In this document: piece by piece, positions 5,088-59,070 of the stretch
Layout: each line of letters opens with the position of its first letter
Position numbering within the stretch: the stretch's first letter is position 1
Origin: Syntrophales bacterium
GTDB taxonomy: Bacteria; Desulfobacterota; Syntrophia; Syntrophales; UBA6807
Length of the DNA stretch: 64,000 bases
Reading direction: 5' to 3'
Assembly (NCBI GenBank): GCA_040767195.1
Contig: JAXGPA010000006.1
Location: 75,084 to 139,083, forward strand
The notes under the pieces: model-generated
Told to the model about the DNA's origin: nothing
What the model saw: only the letters and a program-made list of their open reading frames with translations
Databases searched by the model: none
Program-made: the position numbers and the translations under genes

Positions 5088-5138
5088 GAAGGTAAGGTAT
5101 CTGCGCCGACGAACCCACGATGACGGGTGGAGGGTGGA

Positions 5139-5315
5139 GGGGTCAGACCAAGATAATATATTTATTTAATTGGATATATCTCTAAAATAAAGACGTTTTT
5201 AGGCCTTAGAAGGATCATTTCAGGGTTAAAAATGATGCTGTAGCGCTCTGAGGGCTTTCGAAGAATCTGCAAGCCCCTGTCCTGCAGGGGCCGGGCATTA
5301 CCTTGGTCCGACCCC
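5139..5315. mobile_element. 177-bp MITE/REP-like element with imperfect terminal inverted repeats (copy B)
   Basis: GGGGTCAGACCAAGATAAT ... ATTACCTTGGTCCGACCCC; AT-rich interior; no target-site duplication seen. Confidence 0.6.
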
Positions 5316-21522: not shown

Positions 21523-21957
21523 CTATTCCGGTTTTTTGGGTTCTTTCGGGGGGCTCACGACGGCGATCCCGTCCATGACCATGGTGCCGTCCTGGTTTAA
21601 ACACGACGTTCTCAGCCGGAGACGGTTTTTTTTGTCGTCCTTCTCGATGATCTCCACCCGGGCGGTCAGGGTGTCCCCGATCTTCACGGGGGCGATGAAG
21701 TCCACCTCCTGCCTCAGGTAGATCGTTCCCGGGCCGGGCAGGCTCGTTCCCAGGATGGTGGAGAACATGCCCGCCGAAAGCATGCCGTGGCAGATCCTCG
21801 TTTTCACGAAGGTGGTCTTGGCGTAGGATTCGTTGATGTGGATGGGATTCATGTCCCCCGTGATTCCCGCGTAAAGATACACGTCCGACTCGGAAATGGT
21901 TTTACCGAACTCGGCGGTGTCGCCGATGTTCAACTGAGCTATTGTCTTGCCGATCAT
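21523..21957 (-). CDS. phaJ: MaoC-family (R)-specific enoyl-CoA hydratase (PhaJ-like)
   Basis: GDMNPIH...ICHGML hydratase-2 motif, LPGPGTIY; last gene of the pha operon. Confidence 0.8.
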   Translation of the reverse strand: MIGKTIAQLNIGDTAEFGKTISESDVYLYAGITGDMNPIHINESYAKTTFVKTRICHGMLSAGMFSTILGTSLPGPGTIYLRQEVDFIAPVKIGDTLTARVEIIEKDDKKNRLRLRTSCLNQDGTMVMDGIAVVSPPKEPKKPE

Positions 21958-21987
21958 TTCAGTCCCCCTCCTTTCGCTGGCCGTTTT

Positions 21988-23034
21988 TCAGAACCAGGTC
22001 TTGAAGATCCAGTAATTCTCCCGGAGATCCTGGATGTCGCTTTCCAGCCGGGAGTATAGCTTCACGTTCCGTATGGCGATCCCGCCGAAAAGGGCCAGGG
22101 CGCAGGCGAACTGGACTTCCTCCTCGGTGAACTCGCGGGGTACGGCACTGTAAAGGCGGAGGACGCCGATCACCTCTTCCTTCGACATGATGGGAACGGA
22201 GAGGATGGAGGCGATCCCTTCCCGGGTCTTTTCCTGCCGGTACTGGACGCCGGGATCCCGGGAGGCGTCCCGGACTGTGACGGGCCGGCCCTTGAGCGCC
22301 TCGGCGATGCTTTTTTCCGCCGACACGGGCCCTTTCTTGAGATATTCATCGGAGAGGCCGTGGCTCGCGGCCAGGCGCAGCGTCGTCCTGTCCTCGTCGA
22401 GGAGGCGGATGGAGGCGGCCTTGACGTCGAGGGCCCGGGACACGTCCTGCGTCAGGGTTTCCAGGATTTTTTCGAGATCCAGGCTCGACGCCATCCCGGC
22501 GGCGAGATCGTAGAAGAGTCTCGTCCTCTCCCGGATGTCGTCGACGAGACGGATGTTTTCGATGGCCATGCCCCCCTGCTCCGCCAGGATCGAGAGAAAA
22601 TCGATCTCGCCTCTCGTGAAATCCCTCGGTTCCGCGGTGTATAGGGAAAGAACGCCGATCGCGTTTCCGCCCACCATGACGGGCACCACGAGAATGGTGG
22701 CGATACCCTCGGCCCGCTTGGCTTCCCGGTTCTCGAGCCGGGGATCGGAGAGGGCGTCCCGGAAGTGGAGATACCCCTTTTCCAGCAACGAGGCGTTGAT
22801 CTCCCGGGCCTTTTGCGTGCTCGTGTGCATGTAGTCCGGGGACAGGCCCGTCTGGGCCCTGGCCACGTAGGTGTCCTTCTCCTCGTCGTACAGGAAAAGG
22901 CAGGCCGCCTTCGCCTCCATGGTTTCCACGGCGCTTTGCGTGATGACTTCAAGGAGGCGATCCTTGCCGCCCGTCAATGCGAAGGCCCGGCTGATCCGTC
23001 CGATCGCCTGAATCTTGTTCATTTTCTTTGCCAT
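21988..23034 (-). CDS. Tandem GAF-GAF protein with no output domain
   Basis: Two internal repeats EGIA.IL.VP....IGVL.LY...PR.FT..E; ends in a short coiled coil. Confidence 0.85.
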   Translation of the reverse strand: MAKKMNKIQAIGRISRAFALTGGKDRLLEVITQSAVETMEAKAACLFLYDEEKDTYVARAQTGLSPDYMHTSTQKAREINASLLEKGYLHFRDALSDPRLENREAKRAEGIATILVVPVMVGGNAIGVLSLYTAEPRDFTRGEIDFLSILAEQGGMAIENIRLVDDIRERTRLFYDLAAGMASSLDLEKILETLTQDVSRALDVKAASIRLLDEDRTTLRLAASHGLSDEYLKKGPVSAEKSIAEALKGRPVTVRDASRDPGVQYRQEKTREGIASILSVPIMSKEEVIGVLRLYSAVPREFTEEEVQFACALALFGGIAIRNVKLYSRLESDIQDLRENYWIFKTWF

Positions 23035-23057
23035 TCTTCGGGGAAACCTCCTTTACA

Positions 23058-24515
23058 TCAGGGTTTCTTCGCTCTTTTCGCCGGGGTCTTCCCCCTGGCC
23101 CTCGCTTTCGCTTCCGGGGCCTTTGGCGGGGCCGGAATCGATTCGGCGGGCGGGACCGACTCAGAGGGCCTCACCGCAACGGCAACATCCTCCTCCTTCT
23201 TCCCGGCGTCTGCCGGCGATTCCTTTACGGGTTCCGGCTCGGGCGCCATCGGGGCGACACGTTTCGCCTTCCTCCCGGTCTTTGCCCCCGGCTCCTTTGC
23301 AGATGCCGGCTCCGGCGCCGCCGCGGCGGCGCTTTTCTTTCCGCTGCCTGTCCGGGCCCGAGGCTTTTTCGCGCGGGCCGGTTTCGGTGCCGGCTCCCCG
23401 GCCTTCTCCTCGCCATCCCGCTCCCTGAGCCACCGGATGATCTTGGGGCCGAATTCCTTCTGGGTCTTGGAGCTGACATAGATCCCGATGTGCCCCGTGT
23501 CGAGGCACAGGTCCTCCTTGTCGGTGCTCCCGACCATGGACGTCGTCTTGTCGCAGGCCTCCGGCGGGACCAGGTGGTCGTACCGGGCGTAGATGTTGAG
23601 GATCGGCATGGTGATGTTTTTGAGATCCACCTTTTTCCCGCCCAGGACATACTCGTTCTTGATGAGGAGGTTCTTGAGGTACATGGCGTCGATGAACTCC
23701 CGGAAGGTCTCCCCGGGAAGGTCGGGGCTGTCGAAGATCCATTTCTCCATGCGGAGGAAGTTCTCGACGAAATCCCGGTTGTTCACGTTCTCGACAAAAC
23801 CGACATACTTGTCGATGATGAGCCGGGCGGGGTTGAGGAGAAGAAAGCCCAGGTTCATGAAATCGCCCGGGACGTTTCCGTAGGCATCCACGAGCTCGTC
23901 GGGGCTGATGGACCGGGCCCACACGTTGAGGAGGCTCTGCTCGGTGTCGAAATTCACCGGGGTCACCGTGGTGACGAGGTTTTTCACTTTTTCCGGGTGC
24001 TGGGCCGTGTACATGACGCAGAAGGTCCCGCCCATGCAGATCCCCATGAGGTGGAGATGGGACACGCCGTGTTTTTTCAGGACGAAGTCGACCATGTCGT
24101 TCATGTAGCCGTTGATGTGGTCGTCCAGGGTCAGGTACCGGTCCTTCCGCGTGGCGTACCCCCAGTCGATCATGTATATTTCCAGGCCCGCCTGGAGAAA
24201 GGTCTCCACGACGCTCCGCCCCGGCTGGAGATCGAGCATGGTTTCCCGGTTCACCTGGGCATAGACGATGAAGAGGGGGAAATTGTAGCGCACTTCCTCC
24301 GGCCGGTAGTGCTTCAGCTGGACCCGGTCGTCCTCGTAGACGACCTCGTAGGGAGTCTTGGCGATGTCCGTCTTCAAGGGGCTGAGAAGGACTTCCCGGG
24401 CCTCCCTCATCCGCTCGGCCATCTTGATCGGTTCAACGGCCATCCTGGAAGCGAGAAGGTCCATGGTCATGCCCATCGGGCTGCTTTTGCGACCGGCCGT
24501 TTTATCGTTTTTCAT
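23058..24515 (-). CDS. phaC: Class III PHA synthase PhaC with Ala/Lys/Pro-rich C-terminal tail
   Basis: TP.EVVY, LDLQPGRS, IDWG, GICMGGT, YDHLVPP, TGHIGIYVS; adjacent to phaE. Confidence 0.92.
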   Translation of the reverse strand: MKNDKTAGRKSSPMGMTMDLLASRMAVEPIKMAERMREAREVLLSPLKTDIAKTPYEVVYEDDRVQLKHYRPEEVRYNFPLFIVYAQVNRETMLDLQPGRSVVETFLQAGLEIYMIDWGYATRKDRYLTLDDHINGYMNDMVDFVLKKHGVSHLHLMGICMGGTFCVMYTAQHPEKVKNLVTTVTPVNFDTEQSLLNVWARSISPDELVDAYGNVPGDFMNLGFLLLNPARLIIDKYVGFVENVNNRDFVENFLRMEKWIFDSPDLPGETFREFIDAMYLKNLLIKNEYVLGGKKVDLKNITMPILNIYARYDHLVPPEACDKTTSMVGSTDKEDLCLDTGHIGIYVSSKTQKEFGPKIIRWLRERDGEEKAGEPAPKPARAKKPRARTGSGKKSAAAAAPEPASAKEPGAKTGRKAKRVAPMAPEPEPVKESPADAGKKEEDVAVAVRPSESVPPAESIPAPPKAPEAKARARGKTPAKRAKKP

Positions 24516-25413
24516 GACCCCTTTCCCTCCTTTCGAGCGCTGTCAACCGCTTCTTGATCCTGTAGAGATCCTTGTACACCTCGTCCATTTCCCGGTTTGT
24601 CGGGATGGGAAGATCCTGGAGGAGGTCGATGAGAAACTGCTGCCGGACCTTCCGGTACTCGTAGAGGGCCTTCAGGGTCTCCCGGAGCGTGTCGATGTAA
24701 TCGGGCGACCGGAGCATGTCCAGGTATCTCTTTTCGAGTTTCCCGATCCAGGTCCGGTACCAGGCCCGGGGATCCTCGAGAATTTCCGCTTTCTTCCCCT
24801 CGCCGGAGAGCATTTCCTCCTCCATCATGAGGACCGACTCTTCGATGGGGGCATAGAAAAGGTGGGCGAAATCCATGAGCCGGCCCCGGAAGGCCTGGAA
24901 ACGGTCGACGGTCAGGTTGAGGCGCTCCTGGTAATAGCGCATCAGGCCGAGCTGGGGCAGGTTGAGGTATTTCCGCATTTCCTCCTCGTAGGAGCCGAAC
25001 CAGGCCCGGGATACCTTCCGGAAGAATTCAGAAATGTCCTCGAAGCTCTTTTTTCGCTCCTCCGACGCGGGCGGCGAAAAGGAGGCCAGCTGGTTCCACA
25101 GGGGTTCCATGATCTTCAGGGCCATTTCGGGAATAGCCCCCGACGGGGCGTCACCCGAACCCTGAAGGCTCCGGAAATAGGCCTGCCAGAACTGGTCGAA
25201 GGCCGCCCGGGGGTCTTCGCCGGCTCCCGGCTTCTTCCGGTCCGCCGTTCCCGCTTCACTGTCGGCCCCGGGAAAGCCCTGCCCCTCGGCGGCGGTCTTC
25301 ATGACCCCGAACCACAGGTTGGCCGTCGATTCCCAGAAGTCGAGAGAGGCCCTCGTCAAGGACTCCAGGGGTTCGTTTTCCCCGCGGCCTCGTTCACGAT
25401 CCTTTTCCGTCAT
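24502..25413 (-). CDS. phaE: PHA synthase subunit PhaE
   Basis: PQLGLMRYYQ, WY.TWI...E, LPIPTNREMDEVYKDLY. Confidence 0.85.
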   Translation of the reverse strand: MTEKDRERGRGENEPLESLTRASLDFWESTANLWFGVMKTAAEGQGFPGADSEAGTADRKKPGAGEDPRAAFDQFWQAYFRSLQGSGDAPSGAIPEMALKIMEPLWNQLASFSPPASEERKKSFEDISEFFRKVSRAWFGSYEEEMRKYLNLPQLGLMRYYQERLNLTVDRFQAFRGRLMDFAHLFYAPIEESVLMMEEEMLSGEGKKAEILEDPRAWYRTWIGKLEKRYLDMLRSPDYIDTLRETLKALYEYRKVRQQFLIDLLQDLPIPTNREMDEVYKDLYRIKKRLTALERRERGHEKR

Positions 25414-25946
25414 GATTTTTTCCCCCTTCCCTCTTTCTTTTTCGTTTCCCCGCTTTTTTCACGCCTGTCCCGCGAGGCGCTCTCGAAGGCGGCGACATAG
25501 GATTTCATCAGTTCCTGGAACTGTTCCGTCTGGCGCGTCATGAGATCCTGAACGCCCTGGACGACCTCGTCCCGGGAGGCGTTTTCCCACCCCGCTTCCC
25601 CGCGGAGGCGTCCGATGACCGCCTCCTGCTCCGCCACCTTTTCCTTCAGCCGCGCGCATTCCTCGGCGAGCTTCCGGTACTCCTCCCGGGGAACCATCCC
25701 CATGAGGTTCATGTATTCCTCGTAGGATTTCCGGAAATTCCGCAGGGCCTCTTCCCAGGCGTCACCGCCCCCTTCTTCCGGGGCCGGTTTCTCCTTGAGA
25801 CCGTAAATTCCGGCGAGAAGATTCCCGAACTCCTGGAAGCCCTGGAACCCCTGCTCAATCCACCGGTTGAAGTCTTCCACCCGCCGCTGTCCTTTCGCGG
25901 CGGACAGGAGGACATTCCCCCAGAACTCGAGAAACCTGCTGTCCAT
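25410..25946 (-). CDS. Hypothetical helical protein, PhaE/phasin-like
   Basis: GAGGTG RBS; MGMVPREEY followed by coiled coil; embedded in pha operon. Confidence 0.6.
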   Translation of the reverse strand: MDSRFLEFWGNVLLSAAKGQRRVEDFNRWIEQGFQGFQEFGNLLAGIYGLKEKPAPEEGGGDAWEEALRNFRKSYEEYMNLMGMVPREEYRKLAEECARLKEKVAEQEAVIGRLRGEAGWENASRDEVVQGVQDLMTRQTEQFQELMKSYVAAFESASRDRREKSGETKKKEGRGKKS

Positions 25947-25960
25947 GCCGGTCACCTCTT

Positions 25961-27565
25961 TCAAGCCGCTTTCCTCGGGGTTGGCCTGCCCTTCCCGGCC
26001 GGGCCCGCCGCCTCGAGATCGAGGTGGAACCGGACGGGACCCCGGTATCCTTCTTTCCCGAAAACGGTGTGAAGGGCGCATTCCGAGGTGGGATTGGACC
26101 AGGATGTGGCGATGGCGCCGTGCCCCCGCGGGAAAACGGTCACCTCGACGTCGATGTACTTCCGCGGCGCCAGGGCGGCCTCGGGGTTAACCAGGTCGTC
26201 CTTGGCGGCGTAACACAGGAGCCACGGGATGTTCCTCTCCGGGATTCCCTTGAAATTCAGCGTTTTTCCGAAAAGCTTGACCGGAAGCGTCCCGTCCGGG
26301 GTAACGGGAACCGTGTAGGAGTCGAAACTGAGCTGGGTGATGCCCCTGGGCAGGTCGTTCCTCTCGTACATGAGCCAGTGATTCAGGGCCGCGGCGGTTT
26401 TGCTGACCTTCACTTCGCTGTCGTCGGGCCGGTCGAACATCATGAGATCCCGGTAAAAGGTGTGAATGGGGGATTCCTTGTCCATGCTCTTCAGCTTGTA
26501 CACCCAGCTCATGACCTTGCCGTCCACGACCTCCCCGACGCCGGGGAGGGCCTTGAGGGCATACCCCAGGTCCCGGAAGCGCAGGGGAATGTGCTCGAGA
26601 TACTCGACCAGGGACTGGCTTTCCGTTCCGTCCATGGGGGCGACGCAGGTGACGAGGGCGTCCACGAGGCCGTCGAGCTCACCGGAAAGAATGTCCAGGA
26701 CGGCCATGAATCCGCCCTGGCAGAAACCGTTCAGGGTGACCGGCCGGCCGTGCCTTTTCATGACCGTTTCACAGAAAAGCCGGGTGTCCCGGGCGTCGTC
26801 TTCGCCTGTCATGACCGCGAGGGCGGGCGTCACAGCCACATCCTTCATGATCCGGATGTAGGTGGGAGTACCCTGGTTGGCGAAGGCATGGGTGTAGCTT
26901 TTCCCTTCCCCGGGCAGAAAAGCGAGGATGTTCGCCCCGAGCACGTACGGGGGGATGATAACCACGGGCTTGCCGTCTTCCCGTGACGTGACGGCGGGGT
27001 CCGTGGGAAACACCCGGTAGAGAATGAACCGGTCCGTTTCCGCCACCCGCTCGTAGCCGCCGTTTTCGAAATGAAACCCGAACTCGGAGGCGATGTTCCG
27101 GATCTCGCGGCTGTAATTGTACACCAGTTCCTCGAAGATCTTTGCCTTTCTTTCCGAGTAGGCCAGGATATCCGGGCCTTCCGTCCCGGTGCAGGTGTTA
27201 AGCAGCGCCGTGAAAGCTCTCGCCCATTCCCTGGCATGGTATTCGTTGACGGAACGGATGGTGCTTAAAAGCCCTGTTTTGGCGATCTGGAGGTTGAAAT
27301 AAAAAAGCTCAAGATAGTCACGGGCCGTGTCTTCCGGGGCATGATCGCCGATCTTGACCTTTTCCATGGCCTGAAAGGATTTCAGGGCCACCCAGAAAGG
27401 TTCCATGAAATCGAAGTAATACTGCCAGAGCCCGTTGATGCAGGTCTGAGATGCCTTGACCTGCTCGAATGCCGCAAGAACGGCCTTCCTGTTCAGGTCG
27501 GTCATCTTCTCCTGAAACCGGAGAACCTCTTCCGCCACTTCCATGGGAACCATGCCCCTTTCCAT
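25961..27565 (-). CDS. PhaC-related alpha/beta hydrolase with Cys nucleophile
   Basis: PVVIIPPYV, NGFCQGG, APMD, KDDLV, RGHGAI. Confidence 0.72.
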   Translation of the reverse strand: MERGMVPMEVAEEVLRFQEKMTDLNRKAVLAAFEQVKASQTCINGLWQYYFDFMEPFWVALKSFQAMEKVKIGDHAPEDTARDYLELFYFNLQIAKTGLLSTIRSVNEYHAREWARAFTALLNTCTGTEGPDILAYSERKAKIFEELVYNYSREIRNIASEFGFHFENGGYERVAETDRFILYRVFPTDPAVTSREDGKPVVIIPPYVLGANILAFLPGEGKSYTHAFANQGTPTYIRIMKDVAVTPALAVMTGEDDARDTRLFCETVMKRHGRPVTLNGFCQGGFMAVLDILSGELDGLVDALVTCVAPMDGTESQSLVEYLEHIPLRFRDLGYALKALPGVGEVVDGKVMSWVYKLKSMDKESPIHTFYRDLMMFDRPDDSEVKVSKTAAALNHWLMYERNDLPRGITQLSFDSYTVPVTPDGTLPVKLFGKTLNFKGIPERNIPWLLCYAAKDDLVNPEAALAPRKYIDVEVTVFPRGHGAIATSWSNPTSECALHTVFGKEGYRGPVRFHLDLEAAGPAGKGRPTPRKAA

Positions 27566-27580
27566 ACGCCTTCCCTCTTC

Positions 27581-27844
27581 TTATCCTTCCTTGGGAAAGA
27601 AGGTCTCGACGCGCTTGAAGTTCTCATCCACCGTCTTCTTGAAGGCATCGAAGCCGGTCCGGTAGAGCTTCGACCACTCGGTGATGGCCTTTCTTCTCTC
27701 CGCGTCCCTGCCCGTCGCCTGGGTCAGGTACATGTCAATGACTTTCTCCATCTGCTCCTGGATCATGGTCATGGTGGAAAAAGCGCTGTCAAAAGTCGCC
27801 TTGTTCATGTCGATCATCTGTTTGAGGGTTTTTCTCGAATCCAT
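27581..27844 (-). CDS. Phasin-like small helical protein
   Basis: Paralog of the next ORF (KQ..D....F...F..M..Q.Q..K..D); AGGAG RBS; pha context. Confidence 0.7.
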   Translation of the reverse strand: MDSRKTLKQMIDMNKATFDSAFSTMTMIQEQMEKVIDMYLTQATGRDAERRKAITEWSKLYRTGFDAFKKTVDENFKRVETFFPKEG

Positions 27845-27877
27845 TGTCGGTCTCCTTTCCTGAAACCTTTTCCTTTT

Positions 27878-28153
27878 CTACTTTTTTTCCTTTTCTTCCG
27901 TGGCGAAGTACCGGTCCAGCCGGGCGAAACTCTCGTCAACGGTCTTCTTGAAATCCTGGCTGCCCTTCTTGTAGGCGTTTACCCAGTCCCGGACCGCCTT
28001 TTTCCCTTCCTCGGGAAATCCCGCGGCCTGGTCGAGGTACATGTCCATCATCCTCTGGGACTGCTCCTGAAGCATGGACAGGCCCTTGAACGAGTTCTCG
28101 AAGGTCGACCGGTAAAAATCCAACGTCTGCTTGGCCATTTTCTTGGGATCCAT
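27878..28153 (-). CDS. Phasin-like small helical protein
   Basis: GGAGGTGA RBS before MDPKK; tandem paralog; divergent from phaR. Confidence 0.7.
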   Translation of the reverse strand: MDPKKMAKQTLDFYRSTFENSFKGLSMLQEQSQRMMDMYLDQAAGFPEEGKKAVRDWVNAYKKGSQDFKKTVDESFARLDRYFATEEKEKK

Positions 28154-28228
28154 GTGAATCACCTCCATTTATTTTGTAAATCTGAACCTGAATATAAACC
28201 CCGTTTTGACCCTTGTCAAGATATTTTT

Positions 28229-28358
28229 TTTGCATTGCAACATTTTTTCTCCCGAGTCGCCGTGATTAAAATAAAATGAGTTATTAAAAGAAATTATTGT
28301 TGCAATATTTTTTCAAATTGGTTACAAGTTTCAGAATTGATATTGCAATGAAGCAATA
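28229..28358. promoter_or_regulatory. Putative PhaR operators in phasin/phaR divergent region
   Basis: TGCATTGCAACA (28231), TGTTGCAATA (28298), TATTGCAATGAAGCAATA (28341) in an AT-rich spacer. Confidence 0.5.
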
Positions 28359-28423
28359 ATGAGCGGGCGGTGTTGCCCCGGCGGGCATCGAGCCCCTTCG
28401 CTTGAGAAATCGGGGAGCAAAGG

Positions 28424-28909
28424 ATGGAAGAGACCCTGACCATAAAGAAGTACAGCAACCGCCGTCTTTACGACACGGAGGAAAACAGCTACGTGACCCT
28501 GGCCCGGGTGGCGGAGAGGATAAAGGACGGTCGGCGCGTGGAAGTCGTCGACGCCCGGACGGGGGAGGACGTCACCGCCGGCACCCTGACCCAGATTCTC
28601 GTCGAAGAGGCGAGGAAAAACAACGTGCTCCTGCCCGTCCCCGTCCTTCACCTGTGCATCCAGTTCGGAGACACCGTGCTCCAGGAATTTTTCGGGAAGT
28701 ATCTTCAGCACGCCATTCGAGGCTATCTCGCCCACAAAGCCGCCGTGGACGAACAGTTCGGGCAGTGGCTCGAGTTCGGGAGCGAACTTGCCTCCCCGTC
28801 CGCGAAAACCGTCAACCCCCTGGAGGTTTACGCCCCCTTCCTGGATTTTCTGAAGGAAATGACATTTCCCGGGGCGGCCGATAAAAAGGAACAAAAAAAT
28901 AAAAAGTAA
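28424..28909 (+). CDS. phaR: PHA synthesis regulator PhaR
   Basis: IKKYSNRRLYDTE.NSYVTL, VVDARTGEDVT..TLTQI. Confidence 0.92.
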   Translation: MEETLTIKKYSNRRLYDTEENSYVTLARVAERIKDGRRVEVVDARTGEDVTAGTLTQILVEEARKNNVLLPVPVLHLCIQFGDTVLQEFFGKYLQHAIRGYLAHKAAVDEQFGQWLEFGSELASPSAKTVNPLEVYAPFLDFLKEMTFPGAADKKEQKNKK

Positions 28910-29111: not shown

Positions 29112-29258
29112 ATGAAAAAAGATGAAAAGAAAGAAATGAAAAAGGCGACCTACGAGAAGCCCGTCCTGACAAAATTCAAGAAACTGACGGACGTGGTGGC
29201 AGGCGAATCGCCACAGACAGGGCCGATATAGCCGGGTCTGGGTTGCACAAGATTTTAG
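29112..29258 (+). pseudogene. A-type leader peptide A1 with in-frame TAG (truncated or read-through)
   Basis: MKKDEKKEMKKATYEKPVLTKFKKLTDVVAGESPQTGPI*PGLGCTRF*; TAG at 29229-29231. Confidence 0.7.
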
Positions 29259-29268
29259 AGAGGGGGCC

Positions 29269-29397
29269 ATGAAGGAACACCGAAAAGAGAAAAAAGAGGA
29301 AAAGAAGGTCTACGAAAAACCCGCGCTGATCCGGCACGGTAAGCTGGGCGATATGACGGGAGGCCCTGTATACAACGGGTTTGAGGAGCTGGAGTGA
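29269..29397 (+). CDS. B-type lasso-leader RiPP precursor-like peptide B1
   Basis: MKEHRKEKKEEKKVYEKPALIRHGKLGDMTGGPVYNGFEELE; G-rich RBS. Confidence 0.8.
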   Translation: MKEHRKEKKEEKKVYEKPALIRHGKLGDMTGGPVYNGFEELE

Positions 29398-29468
29398 ATT
29401 AAACGCGGCAACGGGTACTTCCTTTGTCTTGACAGGTTTCGGCCTTTCTTTTCGGCTTCAAGGGGTAA

Positions 29469-29538
29469 GGGGTCGGACCAAGATAACCTGTTCATATGTC
29501 AGGATATACCTCCCCAAAAAGGCTGTTTTCAGGCCTTA
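29469..29538 (+). repeat. Copy C of GGGGTCRGACCAAG-N49-GGCCTTA element
   Basis: GGGGTCGGACCAAGATAA...49 nt...GGCCTTAGAAG, colinear with the 5139 copy. Confidence 0.72.
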
Positions 29539-30356
29539 GAAGTGCCTTTTCATACCCGGAATCAAGCTTGTAAGACAAAAAGGGCTCCTGAACAGGCCTC
29601 TCCCTCCCCGCCAGGAACCGAATCACTCTCACGGTCCCTCGATGCCCAGGCGCTTCCTGACGTTTTCTCGAAATTCCGGGCTGTCTGCCGAGACGCTCTC
29701 CAGCGGGAAGCCCTGCCTCTCAAAGCCGCCCCCGGGCGATGGTTCGAGATCGCTGCAGGGTTGCCATCCATTTCCGCCAAATCCAATGTATCCCCTTCCC
29801 CGAATGACCGACGACTCCGGCACGGACCATGTTCAGGTCAACATAAAGAAGGAACGCAATGGACGTCTGTGAAAAAATGAGTGAGATCGCACTTTACGCT
29901 CTGTCGACATGACCCGGTCAAGGGTGTGGTTCCCGTTGAGGACGCCGCCATCCGCTCTCCGGGACATCCGGCCGAGGCCTGCAGCAGCCTGACACAAATT
30001 CGCTTGCCATATCGCCTCCTCTGTGACATAAAAAAGTTATCAGGCTCCTTTGTGCAAACGTGTTCGACTCTTGCCGGTTCACGCTCACAAGTTCAGACGT
30101 CCCGCTCCGCCACCCGGGCCTACGCATCGATACCCGTATCTCGAAGATCCTGGGTTGATCCGAACCTGATTCGCCCTTTCATTTTGATTTCAACCACCCG
30201 TTTCCGTCTCCCCTGGCAGACGAACTCATGGGACCACAGGATTCCGGCACCGTGTGTTCTTTCTCCCGAAAAGCCTGTCCGTGGCGGTTTTGTCGTGTAA
30301 CCTTCAACGGGCTGAAACCCTGAGCGTTTCATGCCGAATGTGAAAGGAGGACGTCC

Positions 30357-33342: not shown

Positions 33343-33471
33343 ATGAAGAAAGAAGAAAAGAAGGAACGGAAAAAGGCTCCCTATGAAAAGCCCGTCCTGA
33401 CGAAATTCGGGAAGCTGGCGGACGTGACGGCGGGGGTATCGGAAGGGGCACTCGGCTGCACGAGATTGTAA
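33343..33471 (+). CDS. A-type RiPP precursor-like peptide A2
   Basis: MKKEEKKERKKAPYEKPVLTKFGKLADVTAGVSEGALGCTRL; AAGGAGG RBS. Confidence 0.82.
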   Translation: MKKEEKKERKKAPYEKPVLTKFGKLADVTAGVSEGALGCTRL

Positions 33472-33481
33472 GGAGGGGATT

Positions 33482-33610
33482 ATGAAAGAATACCGGGAAG
33501 AGAAAAAAGAAAAAGAAGAGAAGAAAGTCTACCAGAAACCGGTTCTCACCTTTCGCGGGAACCTGAAGGATGCCGCGGCCGGGCCGCCGAACGGATCAAA
33601 CTTCAAATAA
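33482..33610 (+). CDS. B-type RiPP precursor-like peptide B2
   Basis: MKEYREEKKEKEEKKVYQKPVLTFRGNLKDAAAGPPNGSNFK; AGGAGG RBS. Confidence 0.8.
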   Translation: MKEYREEKKEKEEKKVYQKPVLTFRGNLKDAAAGPPNGSNFK

Positions 33611-33632
33611 TCCTGCCGTGGAATCGAACTCC

Positions 33633-33663
33633 AGGCCGTCCTTCGGGGCGGCCTTTTTATTTT
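33633..33663 (+). terminator. Intrinsic terminator, unit 2
   Basis: AGGCCGTCC-TTCG-GGGCGGCCT-TTTTATTTT. Confidence 0.8.
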
Positions 33664-33781
33664 CCGGCCCTGACATTCCAGGGTGCCCTGCGATCAACGA
33701 TCTTCCCCGGGTCCGGGCCTCCTTTTGCCTCGGCCGGGATGAAATCATATAAGGACAAGGTTATAAAAATTCTGATAAGAC

Positions 33782-33810
33782 TTGACACATTTCATAATTT
33801 TTCTTACTGT
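33782..33810 (+). promoter_or_regulatory. Sigma70-like promoter, peptide unit 3
   Basis: TTGACA-N17-TACTGT. Confidence 0.6.
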
Positions 33811-33845
33811 CTTTCTGATTCCATCTTCAGCCTGAAGGGGGGAGT

Positions 33846-33983
33846 ATGAAGAAAAAAGAAAATCGAGAGATCAAAAAGGCCAGGTACGAAAAGCCCGTCC
33901 TGACGAAATTCAATAAATTGAAGGACGTGATGGCGCAGGGACACACTGGGCCTGAAACTCCGCTGGGCTGCACAAGATTTTAG
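33846..33983 (+). CDS. A-type RiPP precursor-like peptide A3
   Basis: MKKKENREIKKARYEKPVLTKFNKLKDVMAQGHTGPETPLGCTRF; G-rich RBS. Confidence 0.82.
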   Translation: MKKKENREIKKARYEKPVLTKFNKLKDVMAQGHTGPETPLGCTRF

Positions 33984-33993
33984 GGAGGAGACA

Positions 33994-34113
33994 ATGATAG
34001 GAAAACCTGAAGAGAGAAAAATGGAAAAGAAGGCCTATGAGAAGCCCGAACTGAAGCGGTACGGGAAGCTGACGGACGTGATGGCGGAGCTTGTCACGTT
34101 GAAGCCTAAATAA
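33994..34113 (+). CDS. B-type RiPP precursor-like peptide B3
   Basis: MIGKPEERKMEKKAYEKPELKRYGKLTDVMAELVTLKPK; GGAGG RBS. Confidence 0.78.
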   Translation: MIGKPEERKMEKKAYEKPELKRYGKLTDVMAELVTLKPK

Positions 34114-34130
34114 GACCGGAAATAAAAATC

Positions 34131-34162
34131 AGGCCGTCCTTCGAGGCGGCCTTTATATTTTT
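34131..34162 (+). terminator. Intrinsic terminator, unit 3
   Basis: AGGCCGTCC-TTCG-AGGCGGCCT-TTATATTTTT. Confidence 0.75.
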
Positions 34163-34245
34163 CCTTCCAGCCGCTCCAGGAAGGCCGAAAAGCAACGACC
34201 TTTCCCGGGGAGGAGGCAGGACGGGTCTAAATGTTACGAAGACCC

Positions 34246-34274
34246 TTGACTGACAGGAAGTTTTTTCCTATTTT
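34246..34274 (+). promoter_or_regulatory. Sigma70-like promoter, peptide unit 4
   Basis: TTGACT-N17-TATTTT. Confidence 0.55.
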
Positions 34275-34309
34275 TTTGAATTTCTTACATTCCGTGAGGG
34301 GTGGAAGCC

Positions 34310-34441
34310 ATGAAGGAAAAACATGAAGAGAAGAAAGTTGAGAAGAAGATCTACGAGAAGCCGGATCTGAAGCGGCATGGGAAGCTGACCGACATGGTGG
34401 CGGGCGGTATAAGCCCGAATGGTAGTAATGACATCGATTAG
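34310..34441 (+). CDS. B-type RiPP precursor-like peptide B4 (unpaired)
   Basis: MKEKHEEKKVEKKIYEKPDLKRHGKLTDMVAGGISPNGSNDID. Confidence 0.8.
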   Translation: MKEKHEEKKVEKKIYEKPDLKRHGKLTDMVAGGISPNGSNDID

Positions 34442-34491: not shown

Positions 34492-34518
34492 GGGCCGTCT
34501 TTCGGGGCGGCCTTTTTT
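34492..34518 (+). terminator. Intrinsic terminator, unit 4
   Basis: GGGCCGTCT-TTCG-GGGCGGCCT-TTTTT. Confidence 0.8.
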
Positions 34519-34593: not shown

Positions 34594-34670
<77 letters not shown>

Positions 34671-58806: not shown

Positions 58807-58930
58807 GGTTCTTGTCTTCCTTTCCCGCGTATCGTCTTTCTGTGCCGTGTCTGGCATCGTGGCCGGGTCCCCGAGGGGTCCGTCCGATGTGTCTCCCGTA
58901 ATCGCAAATTGAAAAATTCAAGAACGCAAC

Positions 58931-59070
58931 AGAGGGACGTCCTTAAATATTTCAATATTGAAATATTTAAGGACGTCCCTCTATTGATTGAAAATTCCGT
59001 TACGACATTGCAACATTCTCGTATCACTGCATATATATCGCAAATTGAATTATTTAAGAACGTCCCCCTT
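58931..59070. repeat. GGGACGTCCTTAAATA-type repeats incl. a perfect 52-bp palindrome
   Basis: 58931-58982 is a perfect spacer-less palindrome; a third copy at 59050-59070 encodes KGDVLK-stop. Confidence 0.8.

Follow-up and report, generated by a model that had tools for sequence, protein, structure and literature searches.

The short peptide genes of this locus share a leader and a Cys-containing C-terminus that enclose unlike cores; what are they, and which enzyme, if any, acts on that C-terminus? A first-pass annotation of the window (the whole 64-kb stretch of DNA analysed here) had described A-type peptides with a common leader, a variable core and an LGCTR[F/L] end, and had proposed that the tail is either a follower or itself the site of modification. 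The precursors form a family resembling those of the linear polyphosphorylated peptides (LPP). Some members carry a conserved Cys tail, and gene content links this tail to a clade of radical SAM/SPASM enzymes that is uncharacterised. The lasso-type leader and the kinase/nucleotidyltransferase backbone of the system are additions to what that annotation contained.

Precursor genes in the window

A2 and A3 are intact genes, and for both of them the description is borne out. A2 (33343-33471, + strand) encodes a 42-residue precursor with a lasso-type leader, the core GVSEGA and the tail LGCTRL (33451-33471); A3 (33846-33983, +) encodes 45 residues, with the core QGHTGPETP between its leader and the tail LGCTRF (33963-33983). 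A1 (29112-29231, +) has the A-type leader and the core GESPQTGPI and ends after 39 residues at an in-frame TAG (29229-29231). The tail PGLGCTRF and a further stop follow in frame (29232-29258, +), the full reading with tail being 29112-29258. All three have YEKPVLTKF.KL.DV.A in common, and a single Cys sits fourth from the end of each reading. A tailless paralog lies 10 nt 3′ of every A gene: B1 (29269-29397, +) after the A1 tail, and further paralogs after A2 (33482-33610, +) and A3 (33994-34113, +). The A2-B and A3-B units end in a terminator-like hairpin (33633-33654, recognised by consensus match only, and 34131-34152, both +); the same element (34492-34513, +) is located 3′ of a solo tailless precursor of the A/B family (34310-34441, +). 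The range first assigned to the A-type peptides, 33343-33983, holds A2 and A3 but also takes in the tailless paralog between them, and A1 lies 4.2 kb outside it.

A six-frame search of the genome (G000, 98.8% complete; 4.77 million positions) finds the pattern LGCTR[FL]-stop three times, in A1, A2 and A3. The precursor family has ten members in this genome, seven in the window, two on contig C7 and one on C9. Metatranscriptome contigs (X1/X2) span parts of 33892-34348 without differences and leave A2 uncovered; contigs cannot prove transcription, and we take them as a weak hint.

The leader conforms to the motif [Y/W]xxPx[L/V/I], with Y-x-K-P-x-L invariant in all 15 aligned precursors. A2 scores above the cut-off of the NCBIfam lasso-leader model NF033521 (23.9 bits, cut-off 19); the other six window peptides fall below it or give no score. 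With core positions numbered from the cleavage site inferred by lasso register, Ser is found at position 3 in 47 of 114 precursors and at position 4 in 27, one or the other being occupied in 72. Shuffling gave a mean of 28.9 (sd 4.3), and none of 2000 shuffles was as high as the observed 72. The core of A3 has no Ser.

Several neighbouring features were also observed. Polyhydroxyalkanoate genes (MaoC, PhaC-like, PhaE and a PHA regulator; 21523-28909) are located immediately upstream of A1. Two precursor groups sit just 5′ of tRNA genes, one in the window (34594-34670, tRNA-Pro by ARAGORN) and one on C7 (~254.6 kb, tRNA-like by eye). A 92-nt AT-rich repeat occurs at 5131-5222 and, just 3′ of B1, at 29461-29552 (72% identical), with an inverted relative near 2511-2548; the repeat is possibly a mobile-element end. 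A 60-nt AT-rich palindrome, 97% complementary and loopless, is present at 58927-58986. Beyond the window, family f15 (L136-L152) is a tailless branch with acidic leaders (YEKPELxxYEDL), up to seven precursors per locus and short Ser-bearing cores, and its loci carry DUF362, B2 and B12 radical SAM genes in a row.

Conservation of the tail

A profile search for relatives matched 182 small proteins, of which the best 120 were considered. Among 120 distinct precursors analysed, 54 have a core Cys, 51 of these 54 as LGC, and none has two. An A-type leader precedes the tail in 48 of the 51 LGC precursors and is also found on 27 tailless ones; tailed peptides were among the search seeds, hence these shares are not population frequencies. 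Sorting 92 distinct genes (the window plus L075-L135) gave 39 that are tailed, 5 in which a stop precedes a GC-like remnant and 48 with neither, the pattern for "tailed" itself demanding hydrophobic-[GSC]-Cys. The tail begins 5-15 residues past the leader, a variable distance that fits a motif read locally. The peptide ends three residues after the Cys in 29 of 36 distinct tailed relatives and four to six residues after it in 7 of 36; the early claim that the Cys is always fourth from the end thus holds for A1-A3 and most relatives, but not for all. Phe is at Cys+3 in 34 of the 39 tailed genes, and L, S, Y, V, A, G and N also occur there.

It is conceivable that the tail is kept at the level of DNA or RNA, through coupling to the B gene, RNA structure or recent duplication, with the amino acids incidental. 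A start codon does lie downstream after all 18 tailed genes with an FK leader, and at least four genes have a recognisable tail 3′ of a stop. However, 15 of the 17 tailed genes with an HK leader have no such downstream start, the tails 3′ of stops visibly decay (L083/L085, L132), and no consensus pairs indicative of RNA structure were found in 12 tail sequences. The codons also speak against this reading. Leu is written with five codons, TTA and TTG among them, across the 39 tailed genes, and pairwise differences over the five tail codons are 1655 synonymous versus 583 non-synonymous (raw pairs, which are non-independent). The first-pass annotation had allowed that the tail might be missing from other species, or that its synonymous sites might be as conserved as its non-synonymous ones; neither is so, because the tail is conserved in other lineages and varies synonymously. 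Judged from these comparisons the tail is selected as protein, and its retention as nucleic acid is highly improbable.

Stop codons before the tail

For A1 the initial description stands as regards the leader and the in-frame LGCTRF. The TAG is nevertheless real, and because of it A1 ends ...GPI, leaving the tail untranslated under the standard code. The same 39-residue protein is present on 10 contigs from four sources, and a TAG of this type is also found in the metagenome loci L106, L107 and L118. A search for PylS gave none over cut-off. Together, the recurrence of the 39-residue form, the TAG in three metagenome loci and the lack of PylS indicate that A1 is most simply a tailless precursor with a relic tail. 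In-frame tails 3′ of a stop are seen in four genes, A1 (TAG), L081 (TGA), L084 (TAA) and L083/L085 (TAA, altered tail); a fifth case, also in L083/L085, is doubtful, and the remnant in L132 is out of frame. The use of three different stop codons argues against dedicated recoding. If tailless products are a normal output of the family, such recurrent loss of the tail from tailed genes is what one would expect.

Pyrrolysine readthrough of the A1 TAG was considered and rejected, in view of the PylS search and of pre-tail stops that are TAG, TGA or TAA by lineage.

The maturase cluster

None of the 60 long ORFs scanned in the 64-kb window is a RiPP maturase. The single PqqD match in the genome is the first gene of a five-gene run on C8 (~228.6-232.7 kb), comprising the PqqD/RRE, a B2-type transglutaminase-like peptidase, a radical SAM/SPASM enzyme, an HprK-like kinase and an NTP_transf_5 nucleotidyltransferase. 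The RRE and the leader peptidase are both above cut-off (PF05402 and PF13471), and the Cys and His motifs of the B2 peptidase are intact. For the kinase and nucleotidyltransferase, PF14907 is above cut-off and TIGR04352 reaches 80.6 bits, below its cut-off of 200. Precursors adjoin the orthologous cluster in three genomes (G001, G252, G458) and at three further loci (L120, L126, L129). We regard it as very probable that the precursors of the window belong to this RRE-B2-SPASM-kinase-nucleotidyltransferase pathway on another contig. No C-terminal protease is obvious in any cluster read, and no SpI-type peptidase, MsbA-like exporter or other transporter was found among the cluster ORFs.

Macrocyclisation and lipidation had been among the early suggestions, and the products might be lasso peptides, or the Cys might be lipidated in the manner of a CaaX box or lipobox. 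The lasso leader match and the Glu at core position 7 of A3 would suit the former, and the position of the Cys in the window genes, fourth from the end, the latter. A lasso cyclase is, however, absent from every cluster read. The genome has two PF00733 (asparagine-synthetase-like) genes, which sit among unrelated genes and score 115 and 186 bits versus 525, short of the NF033535 and NF033561 cut-offs. Just 24 of 88 distinct precursors have Asp or Glu at core positions 7-9, and A1 and A2 are not among them. The CaaX and lipobox rules concern aliphatic residues, length and a hydrophobic signal region. Here Thr-Arg is not aliphatic, 7 of 36 tails exceed the CaaX length and no hydrophobic signal region precedes the Cys. 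Lasso macrocyclisation, lipidation and CaaX processing are therefore unsupported, and we give lasso or lipidated products hardly any credence.

Converging on the five-gene run are genes for DUF362 and a B12 radical SAM enzyme (C8, ~226.2-228.6 kb; L004:8499-10858). The pair is found together with such precursors in several lineages, and DUF362 may play an accessory role in RiPP formation that has gone unrecognised. Two more PqqD-kinase-nucleotidyltransferase cassettes are found in G739 (L205, L206), amid glycosyltransferase-like genes and without precursors of this family.

Co-occurrence of the tail with a SPASM enzyme

The first-pass annotation had proposed looking for Cys-modifying enzymes that co-occur with the tail. 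The check, once run, indicated one radical SAM/SPASM clade. In all six systems in which both the SPASM ortholog (42-62% identity) and a precursor were found (G000, G252, G739, L120, L126 and L129), at least one precursor is tailed; precursors were counted from regions around leader matches, and G252 has two tailed among the eight read. G739 amounted to a forward test, having been entered via a tailed peptide: five of its five precursors, on five contigs, are tailed, and the ortholog was then found (43-44% identity over the contig-limited part). The enzyme is also present in G276 (70% complete), where no precursor was found.

The twelve genomes without a SPASM ortholog have a Cys tail in none of 46 precursors. 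In G001, of the window's genus, B2 abuts the kinase (12 nt), none of 25 scored candidates is a SPASM ortholog and all three precursors are Cys-free. In G458, from another order, the cluster has DUF362 and the B12 enzyme and is without the SPASM gene (53 nt gap), and its three precursors are likewise Cys-free. The remaining ten, from family f15, have distant kinases, and their leaders are acidic; of their 40 precursors none has Cys and all have Ser. No SPASM ortholog was found in them, four genomes being fully scored and six at up to six candidates each.

Close kinase orthologs are rare (3 of 339 genomes of the order, 2 of 401 of the phylum and 1 of 27 in the order of G458), and the genome sample for this test is therefore small. 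Moreover, L120 is closely related to L126, and all f15 genomes fall into a single clade. Mapping the tail/enzyme label onto the kinase tree takes three changes, of which well-supported branches force at least two; a count this low was also reached in 30-33 of 500 shuffles. With only about two to three independent events, the pattern is consistent and falls short of statistical proof. The counts treat 19 weak matches inside long ORFs of other genomes of the order as unrelated and leave out G137 and G008, which have weak leader matches and no precursor by pattern.

The small number of events is also a point in favour of a tail unrelated to the SPASM enzyme, with co-occurrence reflecting shared history and a free Cys that forms disulfide dimers, binds metal or is used by another enzyme; further radical SAM enzymes, a true SbtM among them, are indeed encoded in the genome. 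Against this, the SPASM gene was lost on two separate branches (G001, G458) and every Cys was lost with each, the G739 forward test held, and SbtM and the B12 enzyme are distributed wrongly. We consider an unrelated tail improbable, and we hold with good confidence that the tail is tied to the radical SAM/SPASM enzyme on C8.

Three other proteins were tried as the tail enzyme and rejected. Both the B12 radical SAM enzyme and DUF362 occur in G458 and at the f15 loci, all of them tailless, and no close ortholog of the B12 enzyme was found in G739, which is tailed. SbtM likewise occurs in two tailless genomes, G001 and G458, and searches of the tailed genomes G252 and G739 did not find it.

The SPASM clade and the chemistry of the tail

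The clade comprises 47 sequence clusters among the matches listed, above a clear score gap. It keeps the seven standard SPASM Cys and adds an eighth, C246, in 47 of 47 versus 12 of 71 outside. C264 (45/47) and C247 (41/47) are conserved too, thus the ligand set is unsure. Lys-66 and Arg-191 (enzyme at L004:13051-14061, − strand) are invariant in all 47 and occur in only 2 and 0 of the 71 outside; such conservation makes them candidates that could hold a phosphate or the C-terminal carboxylate. Against the SbtM model TIGR04082 the enzyme of this genome scores 66.4 bits (cut-off 350); the mycofactocin maturase model, far below cut-off, is its second-best NCBIfam match. Sequence and fold searches of the PDB gave distant matches only, the best, SkfB, being weak. 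The AlphaFold model has a mean pLDDT of 67, with values below 50 over much of the SPASM domain, and a fold search with it returned generic SPASM/twitch matches. Complex prediction for enzyme and precursor gave a score of 0.02, which speaks to neither side.

The SkfB paper cautions that function is poorly predicted by sequence in this subfamily, and describes an anSME AuxI cluster fully ligated by C255, C261, C276 and C330, an open AuxI site in CteB and seven SPASM Cys in AlbA (PMC6231123). Seven are also given for the ranthionine-forming CrpC, whose rings are short, from Cys to about +3, with varied acceptors (PMC13692751). SbtM, according to PMC9204691, effects a −4 Da change at a Gly-Cys motif through C-beta H-abstraction, leading to a thiooxazole; that the paper favours a model with the auxiliary cluster binding the Cys in SbtM counts against the present reading. 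Background on anSME and MftC is found in PMC10114670. All eight SbtM copies that we aligned have eight SPASM Cys, the extra one aligning upstream of the motif and not at C246. By alignment, then, the eight-Cys state is common to the clade and to both Cys oxidisers checked, anSME and SbtM, and this favours oxidation of the tail Cys, to a thiooxazole, over thioether formation. Fully ligated clusters are also found in SuiB and PqqE, which yet form C–C bonds.

The same SPASM enzyme could instead make a thioether (sactionine or ranthionine), closing a small ring between the tail Cys and either the variable core or a nearby residue, the +3 Phe being the likeliest. The co-occurrence serves this reading just as it serves oxidation. 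The prevalence of Phe at +3 recalls the Cys-to-~+3 rings of CrpC (PMC13692751), the nearest sister clade of SPASM enzymes adjoins multi-Cys precursors, and SkfB is the best, if weak, PDB match in both sequence and fold. Thr-Arg/Lys-Phe following the tail Cys is also conserved, and a ring would account for that conservation too. The residue at +3 is variable, however, and the eighth Cys, invariant in the clade and missing in six of seven sister-clade enzymes, would shut the AuxI site thought to be used by thioether formers. This weighs somewhat against the thioether named in the first-pass annotation, which we consider rather unlikely but a serious contender.

If the tail were a follower or docking motif, the SPASM enzyme would act elsewhere (on the core, by epimerisation of a tail residue or by C-terminal decarboxylation) and the Cys would be left unchanged. 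The layout of leader, core and tail suits such a role, as does the exact end of most tails three residues past the Cys; the clade-specific Lys-66 and Arg-191 could hold the carboxylate or a phosphate, and the mycofactocin maturase model is among the distant matches noted above. On the other hand, the last residue and the tail length vary in 7 of 36, and the cores have no common target residue except Ser, which tailless systems also have. Because there is neither an obvious C-terminal protease nor a common core residue that a SPASM enzyme could target, we favour the modification site, leaving the follower, the other half of the original proposal, as the weaker and an unlikely alternative. The tail Cys is, on balance, probably chemically changed. 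That the tail is the SPASM modification site, with the Cys oxidised and most probably joined to the Gly before it in a thiooxazole, is our working proposal, put forward tentatively from patterns of co-occurrence and conservation; oxidation at C-beta specifically, drawn from analogy, we likewise advance with some reserve.

Two related systems were noted alongside. A sister SPASM clade with seven SPASM Cys, at 34-37% identity, is found at L168-L172 and L162 (G222, G253, G268, G071, G225 and G054); its loci have PqqD and, mostly, kinase-like or nucleotidyltransferase genes, and the precursors beside them combine a YxKP leader with several Cys and end in GS; three of these precursors were tested and gave no NCBIfam match. 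On C5 (~95-320 and 505-2055, L214) the window's genome also encodes a true SbtM (723 bits, cut-off 350) and, 5′ of it, a short ORF. The N-terminus of this ORF is signal-like, and it is interrupted by two TGA codons in frame, which fall within repeated ASS-x-TG motifs. This ORF is likely a selenocysteine SbtA in which the motif is Ser-Sec, not Gly-Sec.

Proposed pathway and significance

On lasso and LPP precedent, the RRE would bind YxKPxL, the HprK-like kinase would phosphorylate Ser at core position 3 or 4, the nucleotidyltransferase may extend the Ser phosphate, and B2 would cut after ...DVxA and free a linear peptide. The co-occurrence suggests that the SPASM enzyme would act on tailed precursors only. 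By analogy with anSME and SbtM, H-abstraction at the Cys C-beta would give a thioaldehyde, and its closure on the Gly carbonyl a 5-thiooxazole. Tailless paralogs, and those A genes that, like A1, acquired a stop ahead of the tail, would yield phospho-only products. As to biological role, diversified small signalling or metal-binding peptides would be our guess.

The products could represent an undescribed RiPP class in syntrophic anaerobes: a genome-wide set of hypervariable linear peptides with a phospho- or nucleotidyl-Ser near one end and a radical-SAM Cys heterocycle near the other, the C-terminal chemistry being a plug-in module turned on or off in each gene according to whether the LGC tail is kept or lost to a stop codon. 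We offer this as a possibility, with doubts. Were it true, a set of peptides that are likely phosphorylated would gain a second layer of chemistry through modification of the tail Cys, and with a tag of 5-6 residues nearly any sequence upstream could become a substrate of the SPASM clade; peptide engineering could make use of an enzyme that needs only a portable tag at the C-terminus and is indifferent to what lies upstream. The uncharacterised clade of 47 clusters is in any event paired with a specific, very short substrate motif, which makes the pairing testable with a peptide of 42-45 residues. The pathway appears modular, with a kinase core, an optional B12/DUF362 pair and an optional SPASM enzyme and tail. 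Precursors that lie tens of kb or more from their maturases escape cluster-based mining.

Comparison with known systems

We found no literature on this precursor/SPASM system, most subscription journals being outside the coverage of the search. In anSME, too, an extra AuxI Cys comes soon after the first (C255/C261 there, C239/C246 here), and the reaction is oxidation, at C-beta, of a peptidyl Cys or Ser. Its substrates are sulfatase proteins with a different motif (CxPxR), and identity in the fold search is 17-18%. AlbA, SkfB, CteB and CrpC are alike in being RRE-dependent radical SAM/SPASM enzymes with Cys-bearing precursors; in AlbA, CteB and CrpC the SPASM domain has seven Cys or AuxI is open, and the substrates mostly contain several Cys, whereas here there are at least eight Cys and a single substrate Cys. 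The SynChlorMet cassette (TIGR04248-04251) likewise brings PqqD-like, kinase-like and SPASM genes together, but the ScmC/D/E/F models give 26.5/125, 35.9/100, 103/400 and 80.6/400 bits, and the present cluster has one SPASM enzyme together with B2.

The SbtM/SbtA thio(seleno)oxazole RiPP (TIGR04082; PMC9204691) shares a SPASM enzyme acting on a Gly-Cys motif, eight SPASM Cys and the phylum. The enzyme here is of another family (66 versus 350 bits), shorter and with a separate RRE, its extra Cys is at a different position, the precursor is of a different type, and the genome has its own SbtM elsewhere. The split-B1/B2 lasso systems of paeninodin and pseudomycoidin, as described in PMC8498205, have the same leader motif, B1 and B2, an HPr kinase homolog and a nucleotidyltransferase. 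In contrast to them, a cyclase and, mostly, a ring Asp/Glu are missing here, and the Ser lies close to the N-terminal end of the core, not at its C-terminus.

The nearest relative is the LPP system of Bacillota (Popov et al. 2026, PMC13381572). That paper describes a discrete RRE, a YxxP leader, an HprK-like kinase, an NTP transferase, no macrolactam cyclase, and variable cores with Ser near position 3, all as found here; in LPP the kinase polyphosphorylates Ser3, and deletion of the NTP transferase had no detectable effect. By analogy, phosphorylation of Ser is likely in the present system too. The leader peptidase is SpI in LPP and the transglutaminase-like B2 here, where no exporter is seen in the cluster, and LPP clusters have 1-3 precursors compared with ten dispersed precursors with short cores. 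The LPP logic would thus extend to Desulfobacterota, with a B2 peptidase. The terms 'radical', 'rSAM', 'DUF362' and 'Syntroph' are absent from the main text of PMC13381572; the optional SPASM enzyme with its Cys tail, the B12 radical SAM enzyme and DUF362 are the features that set the present system apart.
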